A DNA stretch of 64,000 nt, taken from NCBI RefSeq assembly GCF_053078305.1, contig NZ_CP166879.1, one strand, 5' to 3'. The translations under genes and the position numbers were made by a program. Shown here piece by piece: positions 2,868 to 40,017 of the stretch (position 1 is the stretch's first letter; each line of letters starts with the position of its first letter). Below the pieces are notes generated by a model that ran no database searches, was not told where the DNA came from, and saw only the letters and a list, made by a program, of their open reading frames with translations.

Positions 2868-2903
2868 GGTGTTGTGTCCGTTAGGTGCGGTTAATCAAAT
2901 TTT

Positions 2904-2938
2904 TGCCGGATGCGGCGTGAACGCCTTATCCGGCCTAC
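2904..2938. repeat. REP (repetitive extragenic palindromic) element
   Basis: gccggatgcggcgtgaacgccttatccggcctaca consensus-like palindrome between uxuR and uxuB. Confidence 0.8.
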
Positions 2939-3081
2939 AACGGGCAATTTTACGGCCCCCGTTAATCTCAAACTATACCATTAGCACTGGAAGTTGGCAC
3001 GTACAGGTGGGCAAAAAAACGAAAACTGGTCAACCAAATATCAGTTTGATTGACCAGTAAGTCTGTAGGGTAATCAGTTAG

Positions 3082-4542
3082 TTACAGCGCAGCCACACAC
3101 TCGCGCGCACCGCGTTCGCACAGCTGCTGATATGCCGCAGTCACCGCGCCAACAAAGTCGGCATTCTGCGGCAGATCATCGGCAAAAATACCGCTCAGGC
3201 CCAGCAGCGCTTTCACGCGGTCTGCGCCCTGATACTGCGCGTTAATCTTCTGGAACTCGGCCAGCATCGGGTCGACCACGTCAATGGCATTACCCTGCTC
3301 ATCCACGCCCTGGGTGTAACGCATCCAGCCAGCCACGCCCAGCGCCAGGTGACGCCAGCTGCCGCCGTTTTGCAGGTGCAGACGCACCGGATCCAACAGA
3401 CGCTGCGGTAACTTCTGGCTGCCGTCCATCGCAATCTGCCAGGTACGGTGACGCAGAGACGGGTTGCTGAAACGCTCGATCAGCAGCGTCGCATAGGCGT
3501 TCAGGTCCGTACCTTCCGGCATCGACAGCGTTGGCGCTTGTTCCTGCATCATCAGGGCAAAGGCCGCTTTGCGATAATCCGGGTTAGTCATGGTGTCGGC
3601 AATAGTTTCATAGCCGCCGAGGTAACCGAGGTATGCCAGGAAAGAGTGGCTGCCGTTCAGCATACGCAGTTTCATCATTTCGAACGGCACAACGTCTGCA
3701 ACGAACTGTGCGCCAACTTTATCCCAGTCCGGACGACCATTAACGAAGTTATCTTCAATCACCCACTGACGGAACGGTTCGCAGGCAATGGCGCACGGGT
3801 CGTAAACACCCAGCTGGTCAGCAATTTCCTGTAAGGTTTCTGGCGTCGCCGCCGGAACGATGCGGTCAACCATGGTGCACGGGAAGGTGACGTTCTCTTC
3901 AATCCATGCCGCCAGCTGCGGATCACGCGCCTGAGCCAGCCCCAGAACCGCGACCTTTGCCACATGACCGTTCTCACGCACGTTGTCGCAGGACATGACA
4001 GTAAACGCTTTCAGCCCTTTTTCACGACGCAGACGCAAGGCTTCGACGATGTAACCAATTGCAGACTTCGGCGCAGTCGGGTTTTCCAGATCGTGCTTGA
4101 TCAGCGGGTTATTGAGATCCAGTTGACCGCTTGCCGCATCAGCGCAGTAGCCTTTTTCCGTGACCGTCAGAGAGACAATCGCCGTTTGCGGACGCGCCAT
4201 CGCGTTGAGAATACCTTCGCAGCCGTCGATTTCCGGGTGCAGAGCTTCTTTCATCGAACCGATAATTTTCAGCTCGGTGCTTTCCGCGCCTTTTTCCGCC
4301 ACGGTGTACAGCAGTTGCTGTTTTTTCAGGTTTTCGATCAGCACGCGGTCGTTGCCTGGCATCAGGTTAACTTCGCAGATGCCCCAGTCGCTGTCGGTGC
4401 TTTCCAGCAGATGATGGGTATACAGCGCCTGGTGCGCGCGGTGAAACGCCCCGCAACCGAGATGCACAATGCGTGATTCCAGACGAGAATGATCCCATGA
4501 CGGGCGGGCAACCGGCAGATTGCTGTCAACAATAGTAGTCAT
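3082..4542 (-). CDS. uxuB: D-mannonate oxidoreductase (fructuronate reductase)
   Basis: 486 aa, mannitol-dehydrogenase family translation, operon partner of uxuA. Confidence 0.93.
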   Translation of the reverse strand: MTTIVDSNLPVARPSWDHSRLESRIVHLGCGAFHRAHQALYTHHLLESTDSDWGICEVNLMPGNDRVLIENLKKQQLLYTVAEKGAESTELKIIGSMKEALHPEIDGCEGILNAMARPQTAIVSLTVTEKGYCADAASGQLDLNNPLIKHDLENPTAPKSAIGYIVEALRLRREKGLKAFTVMSCDNVRENGHVAKVAVLGLAQARDPQLAAWIEENVTFPCTMVDRIVPAATPETLQEIADQLGVYDPCAIACEPFRQWVIEDNFVNGRPDWDKVGAQFVADVVPFEMMKLRMLNGSHSFLAYLGYLGGYETIADTMTNPDYRKAAFALMMQEQAPTLSMPEGTDLNAYATLLIERFSNPSLRHRTWQIAMDGSQKLPQRLLDPVRLHLQNGGSWRHLALGVAGWMRYTQGVDEQGNAIDVVDPMLAEFQKINAQYQGADRVKALLGLSGIFADDLPQNADFVGAVTAAYQQLCERGARECVAAL

Positions 4543-23049: not shown

Positions 23050-25320
23050 CTAATCATTTCCCTTACGAATATATGGGCCAAAAGCCCAAGAATCATAATA
23101 AGGGTGATGGACTAGTTTTTCATTAAATCGAACACTATAAGTTAATTTTTTTATATTTTTACGTACAGCATTAATACTGGGCAAAGAGGAAAGATAATCT
23201 ATAAACTTATCGATAGTGATTTCCCCTTCGCAACACTCAAACCCATCAATGATATTTTTCGCCATTTTTCCATTTTCATTTGTTTGATATATCACTCCAG
23301 GTATTCGTTGAAAAAAACTAGATAATGCATATTTGTCCGCTACATATGTATCATCCACATGATATTTCCCACCGAGCATAGTTGTAGTAACAATAAGCTT
23401 ATACACACCTTTGGGTTGCCATGTTGATGGTAGTTCGAATTCTTTAATGATCACATCAAGATGATTAAGATAATGTTCAGAAATTCGATTTATTTGTTGA
23501 AAATAAGAACGCATAAATTTATTATTATGATCATGTATTAATGAGCTATCTCCAACGATGTTACACACTTGCTGATAGTACTTACCATAATATATTGGTT
23601 GACCATTTGATTTTAGTTCTGTAAAAATCAAACAATCATCCAGGAGAATCACGCAATCGCACTGATAATTAGCATGAGCATCAATTGGAGAAGCTTTAAT
23701 CCCCGCATCACGAACTTGTTTTATAAATTGTTGCTCATGAAATCGCCCTTTACTTGCTTGAGAAATTTTTTTGGAACCAAATAATGACATTAGAGAGCGA
23801 GTCACTGAGCTATTTGCTATTAATGCAGGCATTAAGCATAAACCGTCCATACAGGGAATAAATGGGCAATCATTAAGATCATGTGATTTTGAATTGAAGG
23901 TAAAATAATCTATCAGTTTTTTTGCTGCATCTGCTGCAATCCCCTTACGTTGAAAGAATGATAACCAACTCTCACGGCTTTTTATGATCAGCCAGCGATC
24001 CAACTGTAGGGGTATAGGTTTTGTCGATGAAAATCTTTTGCTCATTTCTTCTTTAGATAACTCGACTAAACATTGATAAGCGTGCACCCAATTAAATAAT
24101 GATATATTCCCATATTCTTCATGAAGGTCATCAGGAGATATATTTTCCAACTCGCTTAGATGAAATGAGCTAAAAACGCCATCAGAATTTAAGTAAGATG
24201 GCATATGATCCTTTACCCAACTATTTAGATGAAAATGTTTGTTACTAAATTCATGAACTTCGCTATATAGATGTGACGCTCTCATCATTAGTCTATTTCT
24301 TGCAATCTCATAATCTCGGTATAAACAAAAACTATCAACCTCAAGAGAGTAAATGTTATTATCCAATTTTGTAAATACTGCACTACTTAGTCTGAAAAAG
24401 TCTCTTACTCTGCTTAATGAGTCAAAAACATTCCACTCATTAAGGTACCCTCCCATTGAAAGCAAGGTTTGTTTATTCACACAAGAAGTTAGTTTCAATG
24501 GCTCATGAGTCCGTAAATAAGAAAATATTCGTCCGGTGTAATTGGCTACCTCATCAAATGCCCTATCGATAACTCGAAAATATTCGATATCAGGTTCAGC
24601 ATGAATATTAATATTTTCAGAAACGATTACTCTGCTTAATGAGTCAAAAACATTCCACTCATTAAGGTACCCTCCCATTGAAAGCAAGGTTTGTTTATTC
24701 ACACAAGAAGTTAGTTTCAATGGCTCATGAGTCCGTAAATAAGAAAATATTCGTCCGGTGTAATTGGCTACCTCATCAAATGCCCTATCGATAACTCGAA
24801 AATATTCGATATCAGGTTCAGCATGAATATTAATATTTTCAGAAACGATAAATAATGGAAAAATCCTCTTCATTTTTTTAGGATCATTGACCACAACCAA
24901 GGATGATAATGATGATAAAAACATCTCACAAAACATGATGAGATTAAGTATTAATGCATGTGATTTTTTTGTATTTTTACGCCAAATACCAGCACATTTT
25001 GTAGCCGCAAAGAAAGAATTATTTATATCATGCATAATTTTACATTGACTCTCGAACTCAGAAATTAGTTCAATGTTATCAGGAAATGAGTTTACTAGCT
25101 CATTAATACATTTTTTGAATGTATTGTTATACTCAACTTCAGTCTGAACTGAAAATCTATTATAATAGATGGAAGATATTCTCAGCACATCCAAGGCGAT
25201 ATCTATACTAATATCATCTCTTTTTATGTACTCACAAAAAAAAGAACAAAACTGTTTCGGGTCGTTAGCAAGATTACTAATTCTAGTGGTATCATAAACT
25301 TTTTCCATTTTTCCATACAT
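23050..25320 (-). CDS. Hypothetical 756-aa AT-rich orphan protein; C-terminal region has a PD-(D/E)xK-like motif (CDCVILLDD...FTELK)
   Basis: Long uninterrupted ORF, low GC, no recognisable family; nuclease motif is inference only. Confidence 0.6.
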   Translation of the reverse strand: MYGKMEKVYDTTRISNLANDPKQFCSFFCEYIKRDDISIDIALDVLRISSIYYNRFSVQTEVEYNNTFKKCINELVNSFPDNIELISEFESQCKIMHDINNSFFAATKCAGIWRKNTKKSHALILNLIMFCEMFLSSLSSLVVVNDPKKMKRIFPLFIVSENINIHAEPDIEYFRVIDRAFDEVANYTGRIFSYLRTHEPLKLTSCVNKQTLLSMGGYLNEWNVFDSLSRVIVSENINIHAEPDIEYFRVIDRAFDEVANYTGRIFSYLRTHEPLKLTSCVNKQTLLSMGGYLNEWNVFDSLSRVRDFFRLSSAVFTKLDNNIYSLEVDSFCLYRDYEIARNRLMMRASHLYSEVHEFSNKHFHLNSWVKDHMPSYLNSDGVFSSFHLSELENISPDDLHEEYGNISLFNWVHAYQCLVELSKEEMSKRFSSTKPIPLQLDRWLIIKSRESWLSFFQRKGIAADAAKKLIDYFTFNSKSHDLNDCPFIPCMDGLCLMPALIANSSVTRSLMSLFGSKKISQASKGRFHEQQFIKQVRDAGIKASPIDAHANYQCDCVILLDDCLIFTELKSNGQPIYYGKYYQQVCNIVGDSSLIHDHNNKFMRSYFQQINRISEHYLNHLDVIIKEFELPSTWQPKGVYKLIVTTTMLGGKYHVDDTYVADKYALSSFFQRIPGVIYQTNENGKMAKNIIDGFECCEGEITIDKFIDYLSSLPSINAVRKNIKKLTYSVRFNEKLVHHPYYDSWAFGPYIRKGND
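24406..24849. repeat. Perfect tandem duplication of a 222-bp unit (2 copies) inside the 756-aa ORF, in frame (74-aa duplication)
   Basis: Identical DNA blocks beginning tactctgcttaatgagtcaaaaacattcc at 24406 and 24628; protein repeat VIVSENINIHAEPDIEYFRV... x2. Confidence 0.9.
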
Positions 25321-25996: not shown

Positions 25997-26020
25997 GTGG
26001 TGCGAAGGCCGGACTCGAAC
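25997..26020. repeat. Direct repeat of leuX 3' end (attachment-site repeat) marking the distal boundary of the P4-like element
   Basis: tggtgcgaaggccggactcgaac matches leuX 3' end tggtgccgaaggccggactcgaac (38719-38742) at 23/24. Confidence 0.8.
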
Positions 26021-27154: not shown

Positions 27155-29369
27155 TATTTTTTATCAAATAGCCAAATCTTTCGCCATCAGCCCTTTTCAC
27201 TACTACTTTATCGTCAACTTTGCTTAACTGAAATCCAGTAATGCAATCATTATTATAATCATTATTTAAAAAAGCTCTGATACATTCACCCGAATGTGAC
27301 GTAAGGAACACTTGCACATTGAAACGTTCTGCAAGTTGTTGCGTAAATTTAGTAAACTCCAATAGTAAACTATAATGAATCGCAGTTTCAAATTCATCAA
27401 TAAAAAGTACACCGTTACGACATGCAGCAAAAGATAAAGCTATATAAAAGATGCGCTGAATACCCTCTCCATAAGAAGTAAGATCGAAACTTCTGTTAAA
27501 ATCATATGCTGATTCTACGATAAACCTTTTGAGCTCCATGTCTTCAGTAAATCTGACATCTTTTATCGTTGGCTCAATTTTATTCATGAATTCAATAACA
27601 AGGCCGATAGCGGATTGTATATTTAAATCATCTGATTCTGAGTCAGTTACAGACGTTAAATTTGCACCTATACTTTTGTTATAATCAGTGAGCAAATCGT
27701 CTATATCGTAGAAATAAGGGCTTTTAAATGACGATGAACACAAATGCGAAACTTGATCAGCGTTCCTTCTCATACGTTCATGGATAAAAGTATGGACTGT
27801 GTTATTTCTAAATTCTCCATCAATGCTAGACTTTAAGCTATAAGATGCTATATAGTCATCTTGTTTATCAATTGAAGAATCATCATATTTAATCATTTCA
27901 ACAGTAACATTACTATCATCAAATACTCCTGACAAGATTATTTTATCTTGGAAAAGAGCATTTAGCAATGTTGGACTCAAAGTACTGATTTTATTTTTTT
28001 GCCTAATAAGATTAAAATGCGATGAAATATCATTACGCTGCGTCAATAAGTAAATTGCTTCAAGCAATGAAGTTTTTCCAGCATTATTAAAGCCAGCAAT
28101 GATATTAATCTTATTGAAATTATCCAATGAGAAGTTTTTAAAGAATTTATATTTTTTGATATAAATGGATTTAAAATGTTTTTTTACTCCATACTCAAAA
28201 TTAGTTGTATAGTTTCCTCCTTCGATATTTATAGCCATCTGCTTTGGCATTATTTGTGTTAGTTTTTCTTTTGCATCATCTAATAAGCGCAAATCCTCTT
28301 GGTTTATGAGGCTACTATATAGATTTAAATCCTTTAAGGCGTCTTCAAGCTTGCTTAAAGCATTTTTATAGTTTTGCTGATTTACTGAACCGCTCGCAGC
28401 TAATCCTCTTGCAAGGCTACGTTCATCCTCCATTACCTTCAAGGCTTTTTCATTATTGATGAACAAAGCAAGATCTCGTATCTCAAGAGATTTAGTAATT
28501 ATAGGTTCTAGCTCAACGTATTCACCATTACTTTCCTCTTCAATATCATCTTCTAGCTCATTTTTCTCAAGGTATTCATCTGTTTTAGAGATCCACGAAA
28601 AAAGCCTATCAAGATTCACTAAATTTCTAGCATAATAACCGTTATCACTCCAGTCTAACCAAGATTTAATTACAGGCTTTTTGATTATTTCTTCAAAAAT
28701 ACCAAACATACTTGGTTCGAATTGCTCACCATACTCACTTGTTTTATATAAGGAAATTAGATTATAAACTCTAAGCATAGAGCGAAGACGCGTTTTAGAA
28801 ATACCGAGCGAACTAACTAGCTCATCTTCTTTTTCAACATACTCATCTCGAGTTTTGTCTTCATATGGTTTTAAAAAATCATAAAGCAGTTTGGACTGAT
28901 TATATGTTGACCACTTTTTATTACCACTTATATGCTTTAATCCCATTACAATCAGATGTTTTTCAACATCTTGATTATTATGGATTTCGAAAGGAACACT
29001 TCTAAAAATAGATGGATCTAGTTTTCCAATATCAAACCCCTTTTCATATGCTTCTTGCAATGCTTTCAGCGCCGTTACACGACGATTTCCCTCAAGGACT
29101 AAATAATTGTTATCTCCTAAATCCTTTACTTGAATAACATCAACATCTAAGTATCCATTAGATTTAAAACTTGCTATTAGATCTTTGATATTCTCTTGTC
29201 TATTTCCTTCTATAAAAAAGCGAGTCCTACGCTGAATTGTTGGATCTAGCATGTCCTTTTCTGAGACTGGCTTGTGCTGGTCATTGTCAACAAAACGGTA
29301 GTTATTAGGATCTAGAAATAAATTTTTTAAATTTTTGCTAATGCGCGGGCGAATTTGCTCGACATTCAT
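27132..29369 (-). CDS. ParB/Srx-like N-terminal domain fused to ABC-type (AAA_15/21, OLD/AriA-like) ATPase; putative anti-phage defence ATPase
   Basis: N-terminal LVLEGNRRVTALKAL (ParB GxRR-like); C-terminal Walker A GFNNAGKTS, signature-like SYGEG, Walker B VLFIDEFE, H-loop TSHS; GAGGTGA RBS before ATG. Confidence 0.65.
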   Translation of the reverse strand: MNVEQIRPRISKNLKNLFLDPNNYRFVDNDQHKPVSEKDMLDPTIQRRTRFFIEGNRQENIKDLIASFKSNGYLDVDVIQVKDLGDNNYLVLEGNRRVTALKALQEAYEKGFDIGKLDPSIFRSVPFEIHNNQDVEKHLIVMGLKHISGNKKWSTYNQSKLLYDFLKPYEDKTRDEYVEKEDELVSSLGISKTRLRSMLRVYNLISLYKTSEYGEQFEPSMFGIFEEIIKKPVIKSWLDWSDNGYYARNLVNLDRLFSWISKTDEYLEKNELEDDIEEESNGEYVELEPIITKSLEIRDLALFINNEKALKVMEDERSLARGLAASGSVNQQNYKNALSKLEDALKDLNLYSSLINQEDLRLLDDAKEKLTQIMPKQMAINIEGGNYTTNFEYGVKKHFKSIYIKKYKFFKNFSLDNFNKINIIAGFNNAGKTSLLEAIYLLTQRNDISSHFNLIRQKNKISTLSPTLLNALFQDKIILSGVFDDSNVTVEMIKYDDSSIDKQDDYIASYSLKSSIDGEFRNNTVHTFIHERMRRNADQVSHLCSSSFKSPYFYDIDDLLTDYNKSIGANLTSVTDSESDDLNIQSAIGLVIEFMNKIEPTIKDVRFTEDMELKRFIVESAYDFNRSFDLTSYGEGIQRIFYIALSFAACRNGVLFIDEFETAIHYSLLLEFTKFTQQLAERFNVQVFLTSHSGECIRAFLNNDYNNDCITGFQLSKVDDKVVVKRADGERFGYLIKNIDLDIRG

Positions 29370-29634
29370 ATGTCACCTCAATGGTGTAGGAACTATACAA
29401 TGCAACTTTACTTGATACCTCAGCAATCAACAACTTCATGTTTTTGAAACTAAGCGCGCGCAGCCCCGCACGCCTGCCCGCTTCGCTTAACAGACTGGTT
29501 TTCATGCACCTCATAAATCGTCTCAGAAGCCACCAAACAAGGGTTTTCTCGTCAAAAATGGTGCATAAGACTCATGCGTTTTCATGCGCCATAGACATGC
29601 ACTCATTCGCTCTCATGCCAGCCAGGAAAAGGGG

Positions 29635-29662
29635 ATAAAAAATCCCGGTACTGGACCGGGAT
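29635..29662 (-). terminator. Rho-independent terminator after the delta/Ogr gene
   Basis: Stem atcccggt-loop-accgggat followed by T-run on the minus strand. Confidence 0.55.
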
Positions 29663-29682
29663 TACGTGGGCGTTCTTTCTAA

Positions 29683-29964
29683 TCAGACAGGAATCTGCTG
29701 ACGGCTTGACAGTTTTGACGCGGAGCCATAGCGATTAAGTGTTTGCTGTTGTTTTTCCGGGGATTGTGCTTTGTCTGATAGCTGTTCATTGCGTCGGGGT
29801 TTCATGATTATCTTATCCACACTCTCCAGTGCCGTAAATGTGCAGGAACATTCCAGATTCTGGCACTGATACCACGAGCGTTTAACTGACGGAGCTTCAT
29901 AGGCTGCTGTTCTGGCGTGTGCAACTGTACCGCATTCCGGACATTTAAGTGCCATTAATATCAC
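29683..29964 (-). CDS. Ogr/Delta-family zinc-finger late-gene activator
   Basis: MALKCPECGTVAHARTAAYEA...WYQCQNLECSCTF matches the Ogr C4 zinc-finger pattern. Confidence 0.8.
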   Translation of the reverse strand: MILMALKCPECGTVAHARTAAYEAPSVKRSWYQCQNLECSCTFTALESVDKIIMKPRRNEQLSDKAQSPEKQQQTLNRYGSASKLSSRQQIPV

Positions 29965-30512
29965 TCCTGTATATCGTTAATGTCATTCAGGCGTTGCTGA
30001 AAACGCAGATGTTGTGCCGGGGTGTAAGAGCCCTGGCAATCACGAATCATCCCGGGGTCAGGCATCAAACCGGATTCATCCAGGATCTCACGATAATCCC
30101 CGGCAATTTCAGGCGGTGTTATTGTCAGCTGGCGAACCAGAGCACTGCGTAATATACGGGACGCAACGTCAACCCCTCCGCGCCCCTTCAGGAACGGAGC
30201 CAGTGCAGATGTCAGGGCTGCCCCATTCGCCTGCATAAAATTGCTGAGAGCGGCTTCTGTGCAGGCTTCCATCAGTAAATGCTGCGAGTAAATGCATTCG
30301 CGCGCAGCACAGTTAATTTGCCATTTCAGCACATCCAGACGTTCCCGCAGTAATTCGAGCTGTCGGGCATAATCTGCTGGTTTTTCTGTGGCAGCGAGGA
30401 GAGATGCTATCTGTTGTTCAACGGCTTTTCGGCTCTCACTATGTCCGGCCCACAGAATACGGGCATTCCGAAAACTGGTAAGTGCCTGGTCAGGCGTGCC
30501 TCGGGCCGTCAT
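29961..30512 (-). CDS. P4-like late-operon protein (tentatively Psu-like)
   Basis: 183-aa helical protein in late operon between Sid-like and delta genes; assignment by size and position only. Confidence 0.4.
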   Translation of the reverse strand: MTARGTPDQALTSFRNARILWAGHSESRKAVEQQIASLLAATEKPADYARQLELLRERLDVLKWQINCAARECIYSQHLLMEACTEAALSNFMQANGAALTSALAPFLKGRGGVDVASRILRSALVRQLTITPPEIAGDYREILDESGLMPDPGMIRDCQGSYTPAQHLRFQQRLNDINDIQE

Positions 30513-31252
30513 ACTGCTTTCTCCTTCTCAGCAAGTTCCTGACGAACCTTAATTTTATGCATAGCTGCCGGAGAGAGTTGATTACTGAAATCCAGACGCG
30601 CCGCATAATCCGGGGCAATTCCCGCCAGTTTAAACACCGGGTCCTGTTCAGGCATCGCATCGTTAGCCAGAGCCGGTCTGGTGATATGTTTATGAATAAA
30701 GTCTTTCAGCACTGTGTCCGGGTCATTAACTGAATTCACCACACCCACAACGGCACTGGCTTCCCGGCCCATTGTGGATTTAAGCAGGCTCAGCGTCTGA
30801 ATAAGCGCTTTTCCATGCGATTGCATAAAATCTTCCCAGATTTGTTTTGCGCGAATATCCACAAGAATGTTATGCGCGTGGATATACTTTCCGGCTAATT
30901 CCGCAGCTTTCTGCGGCAAAAGTGCATTTTCGCTTTCCTGAGCCGCCAGCAGCTCATCAAAATCCTCAAGCGTTTCTCGTCCCAGCGCAATTTCCGTGCG
31001 CAGTTTTTTCATTTCCTTTGAAACCACGCCCTGACTTTCACGAAACAGCGTGCGCCACTCCTCATTCAGTGTGTTCGTCGTGGCTTCCATCTCAGCGCGA
31101 CGCTGGCGGATTGTCGCAATATTATCCGCTGCCGCTTTCTGCTGACGACGTGCTTCAAGCCATGCGTTTCTGGCTGTGTTCATGGTTTCCAGTGCCCGCT
31201 GCGTTACAGCCGGAAAAGTGGAAAGGTTGTTATTCACTGCGGTGTTGTTCAT
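30509..31252 (-). CDS. P4-like late-operon protein (tentatively Sid-like capsid size-determination scaffold)
   Basis: 247-aa helical/coiled-coil-like protein, first gene of late operon; assignment by size and position only. Confidence 0.4.
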   Translation of the reverse strand: MNNTAVNNNLSTFPAVTQRALETMNTARNAWLEARRQQKAAADNIATIRQRRAEMEATTNTLNEEWRTLFRESQGVVSKEMKKLRTEIALGRETLEDFDELLAAQESENALLPQKAAELAGKYIHAHNILVDIRAKQIWEDFMQSHGKALIQTLSLLKSTMGREASAVVGVVNSVNDPDTVLKDFIHKHITRPALANDAMPEQDPVFKLAGIAPDYAARLDFSNQLSPAAMHKIKVRQELAEKEKAV

Positions 31253-31430
31253 GGCTTCTCCTGTCGGGTTGGTTCGTTACGTCAATTGTGTCGTGGCTGA
31301 CACAAGCACACTATCGGTGCTCAGTGTGTGGTGGCTGGCACAACGGGCGCTTGCGGTTATTCAGACGTGGCTATGAAAGCCAGCCAGATAAAAATGCCCT
31401 CAGTTTCAGTCTGCTTTATGTCCCTGATGC

Positions 31431-31618
31431 GGTGGAACAGGTGAAACATGTGTTACAGCTTTGTTTTATAAAGCACTTATATACACTGCACCGGTGGAAC
31501 ATCGCGGGTAACAAGGTGGAACAGCGGATTGGCTGGCGTTACATCTGTTCCACCTCACTATTTCAGAAGGTGGAACAGGTTCAGCCCTGTAAAATACGGT
31601 TGTTCCACCTGTTTCACC
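31431..31618. repeat. Iteron array (GGTGGAACA / TGTTCCACC, at least 7 copies in both orientations); probable P4-type ori/crr alpha-binding sites
   Basis: Repeats read directly downstream of the alpha gene; resemble the P4 TGTTCACC iteron. Confidence 0.6.
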
Positions 31619-31652
31619 TGTTACCCTTAATAAATAAGACTCACGCAAAGCC

Positions 31653-34325
31653 TTAACCCGGCACCTCGCTGTTGAAGACATAGAGCCTGCGGGGATTCAT
31701 CTCTGGCGGGCGAATGGTTGTCTGGAGTTTGCCATCAGTGGAGGGCAGCAGGTATCCACGATCTGCGCACAGACGAGCCACCTTGCGCGGGTCAAATCCC
31801 CTGCAGATTTCTTTCCAGCCGGACGGCATGACATAGAACGTAGTGACAGCTTCCGTGCCCTGCGCGGTACTGCCTTTCTCCACCCTGCGCCAGCCCACCA
31901 TATTGCCGGGGCGGTTGCGCTCGTCATACCAGTCTGCAAAGCGGCTGTACTGATTCGCGGTAAAGAAACTGCGAACCTGCTCCAGTGCGGCAATATCTTC
32001 CTGATTGGCGGTGTGCCCGCGATCTTTCAGCCATGCGTTCAGGCAGACGCGGGTTGCCCGCAGTGCTTCACCCTCAGGCCAGCCGGTGATACCCAGACGG
32101 GTTGCCAGTTCACCCGCCATCGCCACCAGTGCAAAGCGATTCACAGCCCGGCCCACCTGGTTGCCTGCATCTTTCGGAGTCAGGGCGGCAGCATATTCCT
32201 TCATCAGCGATTTTGCCTGTGCCGTTAGTCCGTTAAGATCAGCGGTCAGTGCTTTCAGCCACTCCCGGAACGGCGAACCGTAGTAGCAGGACGTGGCCCA
32301 TTCAAGATGCTCTGCCAGAGCCTTGCCGCTGTCGAAGCCGTGCAGCTCCTCAAAAACGCCAAACTTCCCGGAATCGCTGGGGATCTGGATCATCCTGACT
32401 TCCATCCCGGCAAAAGTACGCTCACCGGCCTTTGCCGCATGTTCGGTCAGAGATAACTCGCCAGTTGAAAAGAACAACAGGCGCCACTGCTTACGGGTAC
32501 GCAGCTCACCGTCCGTACCGGCACGACCCTTGCCCTGACCGTTTGCCAGCATGTAGGCGATACTGCCTGCCTCGCGTCCGTCAACTTCCCGGATCTCATC
32601 AAGCATCATGGCGGCATCGTTGCGGCGGCTGGCGCATCCCTCCAGCGCGTTGCCGGTGGCCCGCCATGTCTGCCAGTAGTCAGGCCCGCCGCAGACGGAG
32701 GTTGCCGCTTTCATGGTGGTGGTCTTACCGTCTGTCGATTCCCCTTTGAGGTGGTAGCCGCCGCCGTCCATACCAACCAGCCGTAACAGTGGTGCAGCAA
32801 AGGCCAGGCTGACAGCAAATGCCACGCGGGAGTTGCCGGTACAGTAGCGGGATACGTTCTCCCGCCATTCCTCTGTTGTACCCGACACGCGGAAATCACG
32901 CCCCTGCACGGAAGTGGTCTGGAGAATGACACCCTCTGCACCTTCACCGCTGACCTCATCCTGCAGGACGTAAACCTGACCATGCCAGCCAGTACGGCTG
33001 ACGCAGGTCACGCGGCGTTCCGGTTTACACAGTGAGATATATTCCATCAGGCGTGCGCGTGCCTCACCGGTGGTGCTGATATAAGACAGCCCGTTAACCA
33101 GCAGTACCCGGCGCAGTTCCTCACCACTGCCGCTCAGCATTTCCATCGGCATCGCCCAGCGGCGACGCTCACCCCATGTATCTTCCCATTCCAGCAGTCG
33201 TCCGAAGTTACCGCCATCGGCATCGCAGGTGATTGCCGTAACGCGCAGCGGGCTGCATATTTTGACGTTCTGGATCTCCGTCTCACCGTTGCGCTGTACC
33301 TGCTTTTCATACCAGAGATATTCCTGGGTAAGACGGAACCCGTGCGGCAGTTGCGTGCGGCCTTCCCCGCACAGTACCAGACCGTTGCGAAAGACTTCAC
33401 GGGCACGGGTAATACCGTGCTCCCGATGAAAGTCATTCCAGTCAGCCTTAATCTCTCCTGGTGGCAGCGTCATCCAGCCGCCAACAGCTTTTGCCGCCCG
33501 TTCAGCAAAGGCTCTGCCGGGATTCTCCCCCCCGTCCTGAAAATCGTTATCACCGGCGATGATAATTTTTACCTCAGGCCAGCGTGCCCGCAGCGACTGC
33601 GCCACATTGGGCAGGTTGCCCGCAGATATGGCAGCCACTACGCATCCGGCAGTGAGCTGGCTTACCGTCAGCGCCGTAGCGTAACCTTCGGTAATCACCA
33701 CCTGTACCGGTGGTTCAGACGGTAACGGGCTGAGCGACACAAACGCGCCTTTCATCGTGCTGCCGGGCAGTATGCTTTTTTCACCCGTCGGGGCGATAAG
33801 CTGTGCACCGGTCACGGCTCCGGTGTTGGTCGTGAGTGGTAACAGCAGAGAACCGGCAGGAAAATCCTTACCGCTGATATGCTGCACGCTTCCGGTCAGA
33901 GAGGCTGGGTATCCGGCGAACCCTTTTCCTGTCAGATAGGCGCTTTCTCCCGTGTGGCTCTCTTTCATCAGCGCCGCCACGGTAAGACCCATGTCGCGTT
34001 TAGGGGCTTTTTGTCTGGCAGGCTTAACAGGCAGTTCCTGCACATCCGGCACATTAAGCATCTGCGCCACCTCCTGCGCAGCCTTTCTGACGCTGTAACC
34101 GGTTACGAGCTTAACCAGATCCAGACCGTCACCATTGCCACACTGGCTGCAGATCCACGTCCCGCGCCCGTCAAGGTCATCAAGGCGAAAACGATCCTTG
34201 CCCCCACATTTCGGGCAGGGACCGTGCCTGCCGTTTTCAGGTACATCAATACGCAGCATCTGCAGAATAACGGGCCATTTCCCCCGCGCGGCGGCTGAAA
34301 TCTGCGTAACCGTCTGTATTGTCAT
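31653..34325 (-). CDS. P4 alpha-like primase/helicase replication protein
   Basis: 890 aa; N-terminal Cys-rich zinc-binding region (CPKCGG...CSQCGN), ATP-binding GESTDGKTT motif. Confidence 0.8.
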   Translation of the reverse strand: MTIQTVTQISAAARGKWPVILQMLRIDVPENGRHGPCPKCGGKDRFRLDDLDGRGTWICSQCGNGDGLDLVKLVTGYSVRKAAQEVAQMLNVPDVQELPVKPARQKAPKRDMGLTVAALMKESHTGESAYLTGKGFAGYPASLTGSVQHISGKDFPAGSLLLPLTTNTGAVTGAQLIAPTGEKSILPGSTMKGAFVSLSPLPSEPPVQVVITEGYATALTVSQLTAGCVVAAISAGNLPNVAQSLRARWPEVKIIIAGDNDFQDGGENPGRAFAERAAKAVGGWMTLPPGEIKADWNDFHREHGITRAREVFRNGLVLCGEGRTQLPHGFRLTQEYLWYEKQVQRNGETEIQNVKICSPLRVTAITCDADGGNFGRLLEWEDTWGERRRWAMPMEMLSGSGEELRRVLLVNGLSYISTTGEARARLMEYISLCKPERRVTCVSRTGWHGQVYVLQDEVSGEGAEGVILQTTSVQGRDFRVSGTTEEWRENVSRYCTGNSRVAFAVSLAFAAPLLRLVGMDGGGYHLKGESTDGKTTTMKAATSVCGGPDYWQTWRATGNALEGCASRRNDAAMMLDEIREVDGREAGSIAYMLANGQGKGRAGTDGELRTRKQWRLLFFSTGELSLTEHAAKAGERTFAGMEVRMIQIPSDSGKFGVFEELHGFDSGKALAEHLEWATSCYYGSPFREWLKALTADLNGLTAQAKSLMKEYAAALTPKDAGNQVGRAVNRFALVAMAGELATRLGITGWPEGEALRATRVCLNAWLKDRGHTANQEDIAALEQVRSFFTANQYSRFADWYDERNRPGNMVGWRRVEKGSTAQGTEAVTTFYVMPSGWKEICRGFDPRKVARLCADRGYLLPSTDGKLQTTIRPPEMNPRRLYVFNSEVPG

Positions 34326-34705
34326 ACTTCCCCCTGATACAACGTCACACCGGTACTGCAGAAGTCATCAAAGGCCGCCGGAAGCGTGCGGTACATCTCC
34401 GCCATCACTTCACAGCCGCGCGCGGTCAGTACCGGCGGCGCGGTCAGCAGTGACGGCTCCAGCATGTCAGTCAGCAGTGCCAGCGCGGCAGCGGCGCCCT
34501 GTGCTTCGCCGTACTCGTTAATCAGTGCGCACTCGATATGCAGCGCAATGGCCATTTCAATACGCTCCACCGTCAGGCTGTGCGGACCATACTGATCACT
34601 GCCAGTTTCGTTCAGCATTTTCTGCCGCCATGCTGAAGCAATAGCCCGTCGGTAAAGCGCGGTGGTCATTTCTGCCGGGAAAATGGAAACCTGCGGCTGG
34701 TTCAT
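34322..34705 (-). CDS. Hypothetical P4-like early protein
   Basis: 127-aa ORF overlapping alpha start by 4 nt (translational coupling). Confidence 0.5.
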   Translation of the reverse strand: MNQPQVSIFPAEMTTALYRRAIASAWRQKMLNETGSDQYGPHSLTVERIEMAIALHIECALINEYGEAQGAAAALALLTDMLEPSLLTAPPVLTARGCEVMAEMYRTLPAAFDDFCSTGVTLYQGEV

Positions 34706-34986
34706 CTGGCACCTCCTTCAATCAGTGCGCAGCTGTGTGCAATATCCGTCAAATCTGCCCGCAGGTACTCCATCAGCGCGGCGACACCAGGCGCACAGCC
34801 TGCGTCCAGTGCTCCGGCCTGAGACGGGTATTCAGAAAAGAGAAGCTGGAGCATGTCGCAGGCATTTCTTGCGCGGATCAGCTTTCCGAAACCGTCCTCT
34901 GACAACCCATAGGCAAAAGCACCGGTATTGTGTTTTTCAGGCAAAGTGTGGCCCTGAGCACCGTTGTGCCCGTTTGAAATATTCAT
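34702..34986 (-). CDS. Hypothetical P4-like early protein
   Basis: 94-aa ORF overlapping the next gene by 4 nt. Confidence 0.45.
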   Translation of the reverse strand: MNISNGHNGAQGHTLPEKHNTGAFAYGLSEDGFGKLIRARNACDMLQLLFSEYPSQAGALDAGCAPGVAALMEYLRADLTDIAHSCALIEGGAR

Positions 34987-35017
34987 CGTGAATTACTCCG
35001 TTTTCAGCGGTATTTTG

Positions 35018-35407
35018 TCAGAGAAACTTTGAATAGTGACCGTCGTCAGGCTCAGCAGAACGCCGTATGGTACGCTCCCGCCAGCGGATAAATAGCACAG
35101 ACGGATGCAGTGTCAGCGGGCCGGAACCACTACTGCCTGCAGGAGCTGGTGCAGGCTTAAAGAGCGGTACATCAAACAGGCGCGTATACCGCTGTTCAAA
35201 CCATGCCAGAGGGCAGGAAGAAAGCTGGTTGTCGCTGTCATGACGTATCAGCACTTCACAGCTGAATTCAGGATTAACCAGCGCCACAGAGGGCGAGGCT
35301 TCTATTAATCGGATAATCGTGACCGTCCAGCCACGTTCATGCCGCCAGCGTTCGCCGGGGTGCGGATAATTACGCATGTTCACCTCCGCAGGGAATGCGC
35401 CCGGCAA
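35018..35407 (-). CDS. Hypothetical P4-like early protein (true start possibly the internal Met at ~35377)
   Basis: 129-aa ORF in the same early-operon orientation. Confidence 0.4.
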   Translation of the reverse strand: MPGAFPAEVNMRNYPHPGERWRHERGWTVTIIRLIEASPSVALVNPEFSCEVLIRHDSDNQLSSCPLAWFEQRYTRLFDVPLFKPAPAPAGSSGSGPLTLHPSVLFIRWRERTIRRSAEPDDGHYSKFL

Positions 35408-35621
35408 AGCTCAGTACACAGTCCGGGGCAAGTCTGCGCCGCGCTGACCGCTCATTATCTGCGGTGAGCCTTAACATCACAGGACGGGCATTGCGTTGAC
35501 TGCGGTTGATCGCCGCAAATAACCAGGTACACTTCTGTTTAGCCATCTTCGTTACCTCATATAGCGGATTGGTCAGAAGCCCGGTTAGTGTTGCTGCACT
35601 GTCGGGCTTCGCACTCACAAG

Positions 35622-35713
35622 GTGAATCGCACCTTTAATTTTAAAGCTACCCTTAAGTGAATCGCACTTCAAGCTTTTTATTATCATTTTTTTTGCGTAT
35701 ACTGAATCGCACC
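35622..35713. promoter_or_regulatory. Three direct repeats of GTGAATCGCAC (35622, 35657, 35702) in the divergent control region; putative operator
   Basis: Repeats read directly upstream of the 61-aa + strand ORF and the early operon. Confidence 0.45.
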
Positions 35714-35733
35714 TAACGCGAGGAGATCCAGTA

Positions 35734-35919
35734 ATGGCAACGAGTTCAACTAACAACAAGTCGCAGCAACTTAATGCTCGTTTCCCACATGATGTAGTTG
35801 CAGAATTAGAAAGCAACCTTGAAGATGGAGAAACGAAAGCGCAATTCATTGTTACTGCTGTAAAAGGCGAGATTAAACGCCGACAGCGCAGGAAAAATAA
35901 GCCAGAGCAAGGAAGTTGA
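35734..35919 (+). CDS. Small basic protein (61 aa), possible DNA-binding regulator
   Basis: ORF with GAGGAG RBS; basic C-terminus (IKRRQRRKNK); no family verified. Confidence 0.4.
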   Translation: MATSSTNNKSQQLNARFPHDVVAELESNLEDGETKAQFIVTAVKGEIKRRQRRKNKPEQGS

Positions 35920-36030
35920 ATAGAGAAGCCAACAGACGTTCTCTCTGGTCCCATGTTAATTTCAGTAAGCGACAATATTTTTAAGCCCACAAATTCATTA
36001 TGTCGGGCTTTTTTATTAGTGATTTTCATA

Positions 36031-36246
36031 TCACTCACCACGAGAGGCATATATTTGCTCTTGAATCCAGTGATCAACTTCGCTTTCAACGAATGAAATT
36101 GCACGAGTTCCTATTTTCACCGGACGGGGAAATGTATTGTTTGCAAGCTGTTTGTAAAGCCATGCCTTGCTACGCTGAACGCGTCTTAATACCTCTTTTG
36201 CTGAGATAAGAGTCTGATTATCTGAAAAGCTGTTTGCATATTCCAT
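36031..36246 (-). CDS. alpA: AlpA-family phage transcriptional regulator / excisionase-like protein
   Basis: ...ISAKEVLRRVQRSKAWLYKQLANNTFPRPVKIGTRAISFVESEVDHWI AlpA-like HTH. Confidence 0.75.
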   Translation of the reverse strand: MEYANSFSDNQTLISAKEVLRRVQRSKAWLYKQLANNTFPRPVKIGTRAISFVESEVDHWIQEQIYASRGE

Positions 36247-36622
36247 CTTGTTACTCCGTGTTCTACTTAAGTTCACGGTGACTTTAAACACTGGGAAAAA
36301 GTGATTCTAGTGATAATGGAATCTATTAAGACAAACATTGATTCTATTGAAAAACAATAATCTCCACTGAAAAAAAGAAGTAATATTCATATGAAAGAAC
36401 ACGGAAAGAAGGAAATGCACAAAACAATAAAATTAATAAAATTCATATAGATAGGATGGAAAATCAAAAAATCATACGTCAAAAGGTATTATTACATTTT
36501 AACGATTCATATTACCTAGGAATTAGCACAGTATTACACCGTATTACATCGTATTACCCCCTATAGCCCCTTAGAGCCTCTTGTGGCCCTTCTATTGAGA
36601 GATAGCCAGAAAATTAATAAAT

Positions 36623-37261
36623 TCACTCTCCGTATTTTATAATGTCTTTCCCCAGCTTTATTTTCTTATAAAACGTAGCTTTTTTAATCCCTTTCATTAG
36701 AATCTCATTCTCATTACAAAAAGAAACAATATCATTATATATAACACTATTATCGCTATAACTTACCTTTCCATGTCTCTTAAGCAATTCAATTAGTAAA
36801 TAAATTAATTTACAACTATAATTATCCTCATCATCTTTTCTGTACTGCCCTCTACCATTACTCCTTAATTTTTTACCAACTTCACATAATTCACTTCCTC
36901 CTAACGTCATTAGAATATCGCTCCAATCTTTATTTTTTACCTGTTGTCGTAATGCGTTCTCAATTCTCTCCTTAATCTCCACAGGTACAATACCTTCCCT
37001 CTGAAAGATATAAGCAGCAGTTAATAATAAGTTCGCCTCCACTTTTTGCGTGGCGGATACGTTTTTATATTCATTAATTAATTGTAGATTTCTGGTTATT
37101 GCCTTTCTTAATCTAATAACCTCTTTTAATTGAACCTCAGTCAATTCATCATTTTCGGTATCATAGTCAAAACCATTCATAGCAAGCGCCACTTCGTGTG
37201 GCGTTATGTAAGTTAACCTATTAAAATAAAACAAATTATTATCAAATTGAGTATTGTTCAT
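36623..37261 (-). CDS. Hypothetical AT-rich protein (212 aa) between integrase and alpA; possible accessory cargo
   Basis: Clean ORF, low GC, no recognised motifs. Confidence 0.5.
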   Translation of the reverse strand: MNNTQFDNNLFYFNRLTYITPHEVALAMNGFDYDTENDELTEVQLKEVIRLRKAITRNLQLINEYKNVSATQKVEANLLLTAAYIFQREGIVPVEIKERIENALRQQVKNKDWSDILMTLGGSELCEVGKKLRSNGRGQYRKDDEDNYSCKLIYLLIELLKRHGKVSYSDNSVIYNDIVSFCNENEILMKGIKKATFYKKIKLGKDIIKYGE

Positions 37262-37290
37262 TTAAATCTCTCCGCAGCCCCCAATGGTAA

Positions 37291-38553
37291 TTATTTTCCA
37301 TGCATACGCGCAAAATCATATGGTGTGATAGATCCATTCTTATTAGCATCAATATAATCAGCCCACCATTGCAACATTAATCTTCTTTCTTCAAGATATT
37401 CGGAAGTATGCATATATGAACCTTTCACGTTTTTTCGTTCAACGTGGCTTAACTGTCTTTCAATGGCATCATCATTCCATAGTTTCGACTCACTTAGCGC
37501 ACCACGCGCCATAGTTCTAAACCCATGACCACATACTTCAGTTTTCGTATCATATCCCATTACACGTAAGGCGTTATTTACTGTATTTTCACTCATTACT
37601 TTTTTAGGATCATGATCGCTGGGAAATATAACCTCACCTTTACCACTCAAGGCATGTAAACGTTTAAAAATATCAAATGCTTGTTTGCTAAGCGGAACAA
37701 TATGTTCAGTTTTCATCTTCATCCCACGCTCAGAGTGTTTTACGCCGGGAATAGGCTTACGAATTCCGGGTATTGTCCACTCGCTTCGTTCAAAGTTAAC
37801 CTCACTCCAGCGAGCAAAACGCATCTCACTTGAACGTATAAATGTGAGTAGCGTTAATTCAACGGCAAGCCGTGTCATTAGTCGCCCTTTATAGCGTGAT
37901 AGTCTTTCAAGAAGCTCAGGAATTCTTTTTGGGGGTAGTGCTGGGTGGTGGGTTGCTTTAACGCTTAAAAGCGCTCCAGCCATATCGCATGCAGGATTTG
38001 ATTCAAGCAGGTCATTCTGCACACCAAAACGCATAATTGCGGTTACGCGCTGCATCAGTCGCTGCGCGACATCATGTTTACCTGCCGTATCGACAGCTTT
38101 GATTGGATTGAGAAGCTGGCTGGTTCTCAACGTTCTGGCATCGATTTGACCTATCGAGGGGAAAATATACTGCTCAAGTGTCAGCAGAACACGACGGCTA
38201 TGATCTTCGCTCCAAGTAAGGTTACTTGCGTGCCATTGCCTTGCGATAGTTTCAAATAAATATGCCCCCTCAATTTCAGCTTGTGCCCCCTTTTGCTCAG
38301 CTTTGGGGTCAATACCCTGAGACAACAATTTCTTTGCTGCATCGCGCTTACCCCGCGCTTCAGCCAAAGTGACAGTCGGGTATACACCAAAAGCGAGTCG
38401 ATCTTCCTTTTTGTCAGAGGGGCGGCGATATTTCATGCGCCAGTACTTAGAACCTTTAGGGGAGACCTCAAGATACAAGCCGCCTCCATCAGCCATTTTA
38501 TAAGCTTTCTCTTTCGGCTTTGCGGTCTCTATCTGGCGAGCGTTGAGTTTCAT
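37291..38553 (-). CDS. P4-type tyrosine integrase
   Basis: N-terminus MKLNARQIETAKPKEKAYKMADGGGLYLEV...; immediately adjacent to leuX. Confidence 0.9.
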   Translation of the reverse strand: MKLNARQIETAKPKEKAYKMADGGGLYLEVSPKGSKYWRMKYRRPSDKKEDRLAFGVYPTVTLAEARGKRDAAKKLLSQGIDPKAEQKGAQAEIEGAYLFETIARQWHASNLTWSEDHSRRVLLTLEQYIFPSIGQIDARTLRTSQLLNPIKAVDTAGKHDVAQRLMQRVTAIMRFGVQNDLLESNPACDMAGALLSVKATHHPALPPKRIPELLERLSRYKGRLMTRLAVELTLLTFIRSSEMRFARWSEVNFERSEWTIPGIRKPIPGVKHSERGMKMKTEHIVPLSKQAFDIFKRLHALSGKGEVIFPSDHDPKKVMSENTVNNALRVMGYDTKTEVCGHGFRTMARGALSESKLWNDDAIERQLSHVERKNVKGSYMHTSEYLEERRLMLQWWADYIDANKNGSITPYDFARMHGK

Positions 38554-38718
38554 TTTGGGGGCACAAATCCTCATCGAATTGACATGCCCCCGATTATGCC
38601 CCCAAAAGAGGGTAGACTACAAGAGACCAACAAAGACCATTAGATACCATACTTTACTTGTTTTTTAAGGATTTTTTTGTATTTAGAGACTTCAGGAAAC
38701 GTCAAAAGAAGTGTTAAT

Positions 38719-38803
38719 GGTGCCGAAGGCCGGACTCGAACCGGCACGTATTTCTACGGTTGATTTTGAATCAACTGCGTCTACCGATTTCGCCACTTCG
38801 GCA
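38719..38803 (-). tRNA. leuX: tRNA-Leu (anticodon CAA)
   Basis: Minus-strand GCCGAAGTGGCGAAATCGGTAGACGCAGTTGATTCAAAATCAACCGTAGAAATACGTGCCGGTTCGAGTCCGGCCTTCGGCACCA; 85 nt with CCA end. Confidence 0.93.
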
Positions 38804-38997
38804 CTGAAGAGGTATGCGGAAAACGTTGTGGATTATACCTGTCGCACGCCACCATGCAAGCGCCAGCTTGCTCGCACCTCGCTAAGTGCTGAAATTTTCA
38901 GCATTGCATACAGCGATGTGTAACCTTTGTCACACTCCAGGCACCCCTCCCTGCCATGCTCTACACTTCCCAGACAACACCAGAGAAGGACCAAAAA

Positions 38998-40017
38998 ATG
39001 TCGATGATAAAAAGCTATGCCGCAAAAGAAGCGGGCGGCGAACTGGAACTTTATGAGTACGATCCCGGTGAATTGAAGCCACAAGATGTTGAAGTGCAGG
39101 TGGATTACTGCGGGATCTGCCATTCCGATCTGTCGATGATCGACAACGAATGGGGATTTTCACAATATCCACTGGTTGCCGGGCATGAGGTGATTGGTCG
39201 CGTAGTGGCGCTCGGGAGTGCCGCGCAGGATAAAGGTTTGCAGGTCGGTCAGCGTGTCGGGATTGGCTGGACGGCACGCAGCTGCGGGCATTGCGATGCC
39301 TGTATTAGCGGTAATCAGATCAACTGCGAGCAAGGTGCGGTGCCGACGATTTTGAATCGCGGCGGTTTTGCCGAGAAGTTGCGTGCGGACTGGCAATGGG
39401 TAATCCCACTGCCAGAAAATATCGACATTGAATCTGCTGGGCCGCTGTTGTGCGGCGGTATCACGGTCTTTAAACCACTGTTGATGCACCATATCACTGC
39501 CACCAGCCGCGTCGGCGTGATTGGTATTGGCGGGCTGGGGCATATCGCTATAAAACTTCTGCACGCAATGGGATGCGAGGTGACAGCCTTTAGTTCTAAT
39601 CCGGCGAAAGAGCAGGAAGTACTGGCGATGGGTGCCGATAAAGTGGTGAATAGCCGCGATCCGCAGGCACTGAAAACTCTGGCGGGGCAGTTTGATCTCA
39701 TTATCAATACTGTGAACGTCAGCCTCGACTGGCAGCCTTATTTTGAGGCGCTGACCTATGGCGGTAATTTCCATACGGTCGGTGCGGTTCTCACGCCGCT
39801 GTCTGTTCCGGCCTTTACGTTAATTGCGGGCGACCGCAGCATCTCTGGTTCTGCTACCGGCACGCCTTATGAGCTGCGAAAGCTGATGCGCTTTGCCGCC
39901 CGTAGCAAGGTTGCGCCGACCACCGAACTGTTCCCGATGTCGAAAATTAACGACGCCATCCAGCATGTGCGCGACGGTAAGGCGCGTTACCGCGTGGTGT
40001 TGAAAGCCGATTTTTGA
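38998..40017 (+). CDS. ahr: NADPH-dependent aldehyde reductase Ahr (zinc-type alcohol dehydrogenase)
   Basis: Start at [20 protein letters not shown] and CGICHSD zinc-ADH motifs. Confidence 0.92.

Follow-up and report, generated by a model that had tools for sequence, protein, structure and literature searches.

The region described here lies in a stretch of 64,000 nucleotides of an E. coli chromosome (hereafter the window; RefSeq assembly GCF_053078305.1, contig NZ_CP166879.1) that carries a P4-like satellite of 12.7 kb inserted at a tRNA-Leu(CAA) gene. Gene order was read from the RefSeq annotation of an identical locus together with the list of open reading frames (ORFs). The landmarks are as follows:

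26003–26020 and 38724–38741: 18-bp repeat of the tRNA 3′ end, marking the bounds of the satellite
31653–34325, leftward: Toprim/DUF927 primase
35370–35546, minus strand: Icd-like cell-division inhibitor of 58 aa, first gene of the early operon, ATG at 35546
35734–35919, plus strand (rightward): gene of 61 aa, YlcI/YnfO family
36031–36291, leftward: AlpA gene, converging on the 61-aa gene
37291–38574, leftward: integrase
38718–38802, minus strand: tRNA-Leu(CAA)

A leftward ORF of 212 aa separates the integrase from alpA. The first early gene is recognised as Icd-like by NCBIfam NF033153 (81 bits) and by the RefSeq annotation of the identical locus; its stop codon overlaps the next ORF, and the operon continues leftward through two small ORFs and a DUF5375 gene to the primase. 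Past the primase, and still leftward, are two Psu-like genes, an Ogr/Delta-like gene and an AAA-ATPase cargo gene. Neither the control region nor the late/cargo half showed DNA similarity to phage records, P4 included, and the P2/P4 cos sequence gave no match. Further repeats are found around the ends of the element: the two copies of a 15-bp direct repeat (GATTTTTTTGTATTT, at 24962–24976 and 38670–38684) enclose a somewhat longer stretch than the tRNA-end repeat does and may have been left by a tandem or earlier insertion at leuX, and a perfect tandem duplication with a 222-nt unit (24405–24848) lies just beyond the left end.

A gap of 187 bp separates the divergent Icd-like and 61-aa genes. 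In this gap a preliminary description had noted a triple direct repeat, flanked by the leftward early operon and the rightward 61-aa ORF, and had suggested that it is the operator of a small repressor, possibly a switch. Both the flanks and the repeat itself are as described. The copies read GTGAATCGCAC at 35622–35632 and 35657–35667 and CTGAATCGCAC at 35702–35712, with start-to-start spacings of 35 and 45 bp. The 10-mer common to all of them, TGAATCGCAC, has exactly three copies in the 64-kb window (starting at 35623, 35658 and 35703), all in the control region, against a mean of 0.17 in shuffled sequence (0 of 100 shuffles reached three). When two or fewer mismatches are allowed, the satellite holds 16 copies where 18.8 are expected, that is, nothing beyond chance. 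What does not stand is the description of the copies as plain direct repeats: they are palindromes built around an asymmetric centre, and the first of them can be flipped (see below). We refer to the three sites as O1, O2 and O3:

35619–35635: O1, repeat copy 1 inside a perfect inverted repeat of 17 bp (AAGGTG-AATCG-CACCTT)
35655–35669: O2, a palindrome (AAGTG-AATCG-CACTT) around repeat copy 2
35702–35714: O3, repeat copy 3 (CTGAATCGCACCT), the weakest palindrome of the three

At 35 and 45 bp the sites are out of helical phase with one another, and so cooperative looping is not implied.

The sites coincide with elements of two divergent promoters, which we predict from consensus and conservation as read from the sequence. 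A simple promoter scan called neither of them. Together with the end of the rightward transcription unit they are:

35644–35672, minus strand: P_L, predicted leftward early promoter; −35 TTGAAG (35667–35672), 17-nt spacer, −10 TAGCTT (35644–35649), start near 35636
35675–35711, plus strand: P_R, predicted promoter of the 61-aa gene; −10 TATACT (35698–35703), start near A35711
35983–36016, plus strand: terminator-like hairpin and T-run ending the 61-aa gene (−9.5 kcal/mol, z = −2.5, followed by UUUUUUAUU)

O2 nearly fills the 17-nt spacer of P_L and abuts its −35 element, while O1 occupies about +2 to +18 of the predicted transcript. O3 spans roughly −10 to +4 of P_R and is merged with its −10 element: the degraded left arm of the palindrome doubles as the end of the TATACT hexamer. 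In every locus the first base of O3 is C or A, never G, because the hexamer (TATACT or TATAAT) requires one or the other. Core elements of both predicted promoters are thus overlapped: the spacer of P_L by O2, its start by O1 and the −10 of P_R by O3. The −35 of P_R is poor and falls in a T-rich tract (35675–35680); the centre of O2 lies ∼48 bp upstream of the predicted rightward start. The 61-aa gene has a Shine-Dalgarno sequence, GAGGAG, at 35720–35725, and is monocistronic. No toxin gene follows it, so it does not qualify as a type II antitoxin.

Relatives of the 61-aa protein, taken from one genome per species, gave 15 loci in Citrobacter, Morganella, Proteus, Dickeya, Pectobacterium, Xenorhabdus and Cedecea. 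More distant homologues added loci of E. coli, Citrobacter and Siccibacter/Cronobacter type, and a scan of viral contigs added 20 satellite-sized IMG/VR contigs with all three sites; the combined set comprises 32 distinct control regions from about ten genera. In all 32 the sites keep their positions relative to the ATG (about −112, −77 and −32), and the triplet with identical 35/45 spacing recurs in the 20 IMG/VR contigs and in Citrobacter, Morganella, Proteus, Dickeya, Pectobacterium and Xenorhabdus. The promoters persist with them. The −10 of P_R is TATACT, TATAAT or CATAAT in 32/32 control regions. The −35 of P_L is TTGA(A/G/C)G in every genus examined while other bases vary, its spacer measures 17 nt in class-I loci, as in all others counted by hand, and its −10 stays within TAnnnT (TAGCTT, TAGTTT, TAAGTT, TAATGT, TAACTT, TAGAGT, TAGCAT, TAGTGT, TAAAGT).

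Among class-I loci the 11-bp cores are essentially invariant and the DNA between them drifts. Comparison with the Morganella locus L005 gives a measure of this conservation: in the 61-aa gene 29 of 53 third-codon positions have changed and only 5 first or second positions, and the three cores are intact. The excess of third-position changes indicates that the ORF is a real gene under purifying selection; the survival of the cores in non-coding DNA, despite neutral change in the neighbouring gene, indicates a genuine footprint.

The module is also found outside complete P4-like satellites. Next to fis in Dickeya and Pectobacterium (L006–L011 and L016, at ∼2600–3190 of each locus) there is only a minimal remnant, consisting of the Icd-like gene, a SymR-like RNA (described below), the three operators and the small rightward gene; the trio is conserved across species, and the cargo gene that follows is, by eye, of ToxN/AbiQ type. 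This remnant may persist as a self-contained toxin–antitoxin-like module. In three E. coli loci (L019–L021, 3679–4041) the small gene and its operators belong to a PICI-like element inside a small-terminase gene. That element also encodes a 120-aa protein in which a weak DUF3950 (YlcI-like) match falls on a Terminase_2 domain, a hint that the YlcI fold is also used as the DNA-binding domain of a terminase.

The 61-aa protein matches NCBIfam NF041551 (YlcI_YnfO_N) over residues 9–50 with 65.7 bits (cut-off 30), and the identical protein WP_000235891.1 is named ‘YlcI/YnfO family protein’ in RefSeq. It also matches phrog_949; the NCBIfam and PHROG families are both without assigned function, and a literature search returned no study of what YlcI or YnfO does. 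No ribbon-helix-helix (RHH) family was found in Pfam at E up to 1, a sequence search of the PDB gave no significant match to a solved RHH protein and nothing else of relevance, and tblastn against phage records gave no match. A monomer AlphaFold model contained two helices only, for which Foldseek found no PDB match. A model of an artificial pseudo-dimer, two copies joined by a Gly-Ser linker, gave a confident RHH fold: a β-strand (residues 10–18) followed by two helices (19–27 and 35–54), the subunits intertwined and their strands paired in a two-stranded antiparallel ribbon. Single-chain Arc is among the top structural hits for this model. In a single comparison, BLASTP aligns NKSQQLNARFPHDVV with SKMPQFNLRWPREVL of Arc; the match is short and weak (E 0.001) and places Q12, N14 and R16 on Arc Q9, N11 and R13. 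Those Arc residues are the ones that contact bases in the Arc–operator structure. The modelling predicts the 61-aa protein to be an Arc-like RHH dimer. Members of the family in lambdoid prophages adjoin small-terminase genes, and the family may have other roles besides.

The predicted β-strand of the protein and the cores of the three sites change together. Proteins with the strand QQLNARF are found with the core GTGAATCGCAC, those with RQKTARV or RQKTARI with GTGACT(C/T)(C/G)CAC, that is, GTGACTCCCAC or GTGACTTGCAC, and those with QFMTARV with GTGATACACAC. In each class, a locus has the new core in two or more of its three sites. A correlation with the gene would be expected of any sequence beside it; the informative point is that separate sites change in concert, which calls for a common reader whose specificity has changed. 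Since gene and sites are adjacent, part of this co-variation is simple co-inheritance.

Linkage is informative in the same respect. In P4-like, PICI-like and remnant contexts alike, no gene but the one for the 61-aa protein is constantly associated with the sites, which are not tied to AlpA, integrase, primase or first early gene. Class-I sites accompany integrases of 22–46% identity, and primases either of the Toprim/DUF927 type (32–99% identity) or of the D5_N/DUF5906 type. Conversely, four E. coli satellites (L002, L003, L148 and L149) have Icd-like and primase proteins 97–99% identical to those of the window and carry other small rightward ORFs, which match the PHROG ‘Arc-like repressor’. 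These satellites have palindromes of their own (ATGGTAATTACCAT twice, or TGTAATG..CATTACA), which are kept while the flanks drift. Homology between the small proteins of L002/L003 type and those of YlcI type was not detectable by hhalign (probability 0.3%), and we treat the two as positional analogues. The comparison shows the small gene and its sites behaving as a putative exchangeable specificity cassette. The linkage pattern disfavours AlpA, the primase (with the sites as iterons) and the early proteins as cognate binder.

We put at about three in four the probability that the three repeats are operators of the adjacent 61-aa, Arc/Mnt-like RHH repressor and act as a switch on the early operon of the satellite. 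The suggestion made in the preliminary description, an operator for a small repressor, gains support from the overlap with promoters, the conserved footprint, the concerted change of sites and β-strand, and the predicted fold.

The alternative that fares best against this reading, improbable as we judge it, is that some other trans-acting factor – a Cox, Ogr or C-like protein of the helper phage, or a host protein – binds the sites and that the 61-aa protein has another job. The contribution of co-inheritance to the co-variation leaves room for such a factor, as does a protein family to which no function is assigned. It would have to be reconciled with a linked gene that is alone in its constancy and is predicted to encode a DNA-binding RHH protein, with several sites per locus switching core in step with the β-strand class, and with O3 placed on the −10 of the 61-aa gene itself, the classic layout of autoregulation. 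Nor did the viral-contig scan find the operator in phage regulatory regions: of the 120 loci matched by a single 14-mer, 100 had one site by chance and were scattered over 86 unrelated contexts, and only the 20 with all three sites were informative.

Two further alternatives are both very unlikely. In the first the repeats act as RNA, either as a 5′ stem-loop of the early mRNA or as a terminator of an antisense RNA. O1 does form a 6-bp stem, is flagged as terminator-like on the plus strand and would sit at the 5′ end of the early transcript; moreover its outer arms change symmetrically (AAGG/CCTT, TAGG/CCTA, TTGG/CCAA), as compensatory changes in a stem would. What speaks for DNA is the orientation of its centre. 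O1 is inverted (GTGCGATTCAC) in three Xenorhabdus loci (L012, L014 and L015), and it flips between L017 and L022, whose proteins are near-identical. Flipping the asymmetric centre keeps the DNA site for a binder of two-fold symmetry and alters the RNA loop, which argues for an element that works at the level of DNA. Furthermore, O2, in the spacer of a promoter, is part of neither predicted transcript, O3 has a broken left arm, Pectobacterium, Dickeya and Morganella lack the T-run that follows O1, and there is no obvious rationale for three hairpins with identical loops distributed over two opposite transcripts.

In the second the primase/helicase would bind the repeats as replication iterons (ori- or crr-like), or a terminase-associated protein would bind them as packaging sites of cosB type. 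There are precedents for both: in P4 the α protein recognises repeats at ori and crr, and in λ the three R sites of cosB precede Nu1. Relatives of the 61-aa protein that neighbour small-terminase genes, and the DUF3950 match on the Terminase_2 protein of L019, point in the same direction. Against iterons stand the unrelated primases that accompany the same sites and, reciprocally, the different repeats that accompany a 99% identical primase in L002 and L003. Both versions have to account for sites that coincide base-for-base with promoter elements, and the cos site of P4-like elements is located between int and psu, not in this region (PMC8628076).

The least probable alternative, that the repeats are sites for AlpA (named in the preliminary description as a possible binder) acting in a Vis-like manner on excision or early transcription, has in its favour an alpA gene 300 bp away and the role of AlpA as activator of early genes in E. 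coli PICIs (PMC6092414), and against it the finding of identical class-I operators beside AlpA proteins only 50–57% identical, beside an unrelated HTH_17 protein (Citrobacter L004) or in loci lacking AlpA within 3 kb, the class-II sites of L017 beside an equally diverged AlpA, and a better candidate for AlpA or Int binding just upstream of alpA. That candidate is an array within 36495–36557 on the minus strand, between the 212-aa ORF and alpA, in which GTAATAC occurs three times with an exact 10-bp period (36531, 36541 and 36551) and two degenerate GTAATA copies follow further on; it is possibly a separate protein-binding array, for AlpA/Xis or for Int of the arm type. No Ogr/δ box (TGT-N12-ACA) was found upstream of alpA. 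One apparent case of a different AlpA, H18, is an alpA truncated by IS903B. In E. coli DETEC-S560 (L150, 2217–3373) alpA is truncated by an IS903B insertion and the RHH gene and operators are intact.

The control region holds a further element on the early side, a candidate cis-antisense RNA that resembles SymR:

35506–35533, plus strand: predicted promoter of the antisense RNA (TTGATC, 16 nt, TACACT), inside the Icd-like coding region
35541–∼35613, plus strand: candidate SymR-like cis-antisense RNA, 3′ end uncertain
35548–35554 paired with 35562–35568, plus strand: hairpin 1, with an anti-Shine-Dalgarno sequence in its loop
between hairpins 1 and 2, plus strand: conserved linker UUGGUCAG
35576–35610, plus strand: hairpin 2

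The predicted start, A35541, comes 3 nt after the complement of the start codon of the Icd-like gene. A TAnnnT hexamer stands 7 nt upstream of the start A in 16/16 aligned loci, and symR of K-12 shares the layout (TAGAAT, 7 nt, AGTCAT). The Rfam symR model (RF01809) aligns with the window over its full length on the plus strand at 26.3 bits, which is below the gathering threshold of 61 bits; full-length plus-strand matches, again sub-threshold (24–35 bits), occur at the same syntenic spot in L025, L022, L006 and L017. Searching in the other direction, a covariance model built from the satellites alone finds the genuine K-12 symR (25.4 bits, E ∼1e-3) as its only non-satellite match in 139 kb.

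In the 16-locus alignment 92% of cells are paired, against 37–47% in slid controls. Ten pairs change on both sides, and none of 500 shuffles reaches the observed score. The alignment contains 56 G.U cells and 6 A.C cells; this excess places the structure in the plus-strand RNA, antisense to the early leader. What is found, then, is a candidate two-hairpin antisense RNA with covariation, lying over the start codon and Shine-Dalgarno sequence of a gene on the opposite strand. A T-run follows hairpin 2 in many loci and is absent in the window. SymR-like RNAs are present also in satellites with other types of repressor (L002, L003). The RNA would mask the Shine-Dalgarno sequence and start codon of the Icd-like gene and probably provides a second lock. 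Rfam int-alpA RNA (RF02996) is found above threshold (52 bits) in the Morganella satellite L005 (6057–6125, minus strand); the window had no match to it between 28000 and 40000.

With the three sites read as operators of the RHH repressor, the switch might work as follows. Repressor at O2 would sit between the −35 and −10 elements of the early promoter and repressor at O1 at the early transcription start, so that the two together would block RNA polymerase at P_L. As P_L is predicted to drive the Icd-like gene, the small early genes and the primase, its blockage would keep the integrated satellite quiescent. O3, the weakest site, lies on the repressor’s own −10 and would bring about negative autoregulation at high levels of repressor; O2, from its position ∼48 bp upstream of the P_R start, might also stimulate that weak promoter. 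The antisense RNA, covering the ribosome-binding site of the first early gene, would probably add a translational lock. A helper phage could lift repression by means of an antirepressor or by transcription that reads through from the convergent alpA; both are guesses. Satellite lineages with different repressor/operator pairs at the same place would constitute immunity types. Binding, repression and autoregulation are in all of this inferred from sequence.

A repressor with palindromic operators at divergent promoters is, for RHH proteins, of a textbook kind. What is new is the proposed repressor role for the uncharacterised YlcI/YnfO family, the three-site architecture, and its location at the start of the early operon in P4-like and some PICI-like satellites. 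To our knowledge, P4 is the one satellite for which the means of silencing is known, and there it is an RNA. Our literature search found no paper describing such a YlcI/YnfO repressor in satellites, and nothing relevant on RHH repressors or SymR in these elements. The inferred role would give a function to YlcI/YnfO and phrog_949. A conserved, portable repressor with a defined operator would offer a handle on the derepression signal of the helper phage, and satellites could be grouped by operator and repressor into immunity classes. The SymR-like RNA extends a family of chromosomal type I antitoxin RNAs to mobile elements.

A broader proposal is possible, and we advance it tentatively, as less likely than not: that the long-missing master repressor, or immunity determinant, of Gram-negative satellites, both P4-like and PICI-like, is the YlcI/YnfO RHH protein with its three operators, with the exchangeable specificity classes as immunity groups. 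The SymR-like RNA would then place a double lock on a toxic Icd-like first gene, helpers would have to defeat the module (by antirepressor or alpA read-through), and the cassette would be the source or a sibling of chromosomal symE/symR.

Several known systems invite comparison. Like the CI RNA of P4 and the c4 RNA of P1 and P7, the module would silence a satellite's or phage's early operon; the operon controlled by c4 in P1 is icd-led, and the first gene here is Icd-like, while the target in P4 is the α operon. There the agent is a processed RNA from the same strand, whereas here it is a putative protein operator together with a cis-antisense RNA from the opposite strand. The comparison with the P4 immunity region that had been proposed in the preliminary description detected no similarity to that region or to C4/CI RNA: Rfam C4 (RF01695) and isrK gave no match at E up to 1 over 28000–40000 or at E up to 10 over 35380–35760.

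The Stl (Rpr) repressors of SaPIs and PICIs are, like the 61-aa gene, encoded divergently from a xis/replication operon and are the presumed keepers of satellite quiescence. In Gram-negative PICIs the global repressor has been described as ‘unclear’ (PMC6092414). Stl is a large HTH protein inactivated by proteins of the helper phage; the present candidate is a predicted RHH protein of 61 aa.

The likeness to SymE/SymR of K-12 concerns the antisense RNA: one of ∼75 nt that starts 3 nt past the start codon and combines two hairpins with a linker of UUGUGAUUAG type and a GUGUUG..GCAC loop, with cross-detection in both directions. In both cases a repressor operator lies just beyond the 3′ end of the RNA, a LexA box in symE and O1, the putative RHH operator, here. 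The satellite RNAs differ in scoring 24–35 bits against the Rfam threshold of 61, and in their target, which is Icd-like and not SymE.

In λ, OR1, OR2 and OR3 are likewise three related sites between divergent promoters, two of them over the early/lytic promoter, with the weakest on the repressor’s own promoter and the middle one placed where activation is possible. The λ repressor is an HTH protein, in contrast to the RHH protein predicted here, and its sites are adjacent instead of 35 and 45 bp apart.

The immI region of P22, with Mnt and Arc, differs in having one operator per promoter where here there are three separated sites, and in controlling arc–ant where here the target is the satellite early operon from icd to primase; nor does the 61-aa protein have significant sequence homology to Arc or Mnt. 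The resemblance lies in the design. Both have a small RHH protein (53–83 aa), predicted as such in the satellite, that is encoded divergently from the operon it represses, or here would repress, and that regulates itself, as O3 suggests for the satellite. Both have palindromic operators of 17–21 bp, putative ones in the satellite, placed on a promoter, and the β-strand motif QxNxR(F/W)P of Arc, whose single-chain form is a top structural hit for the linked-dimer model, is matched in the 61-aa protein.
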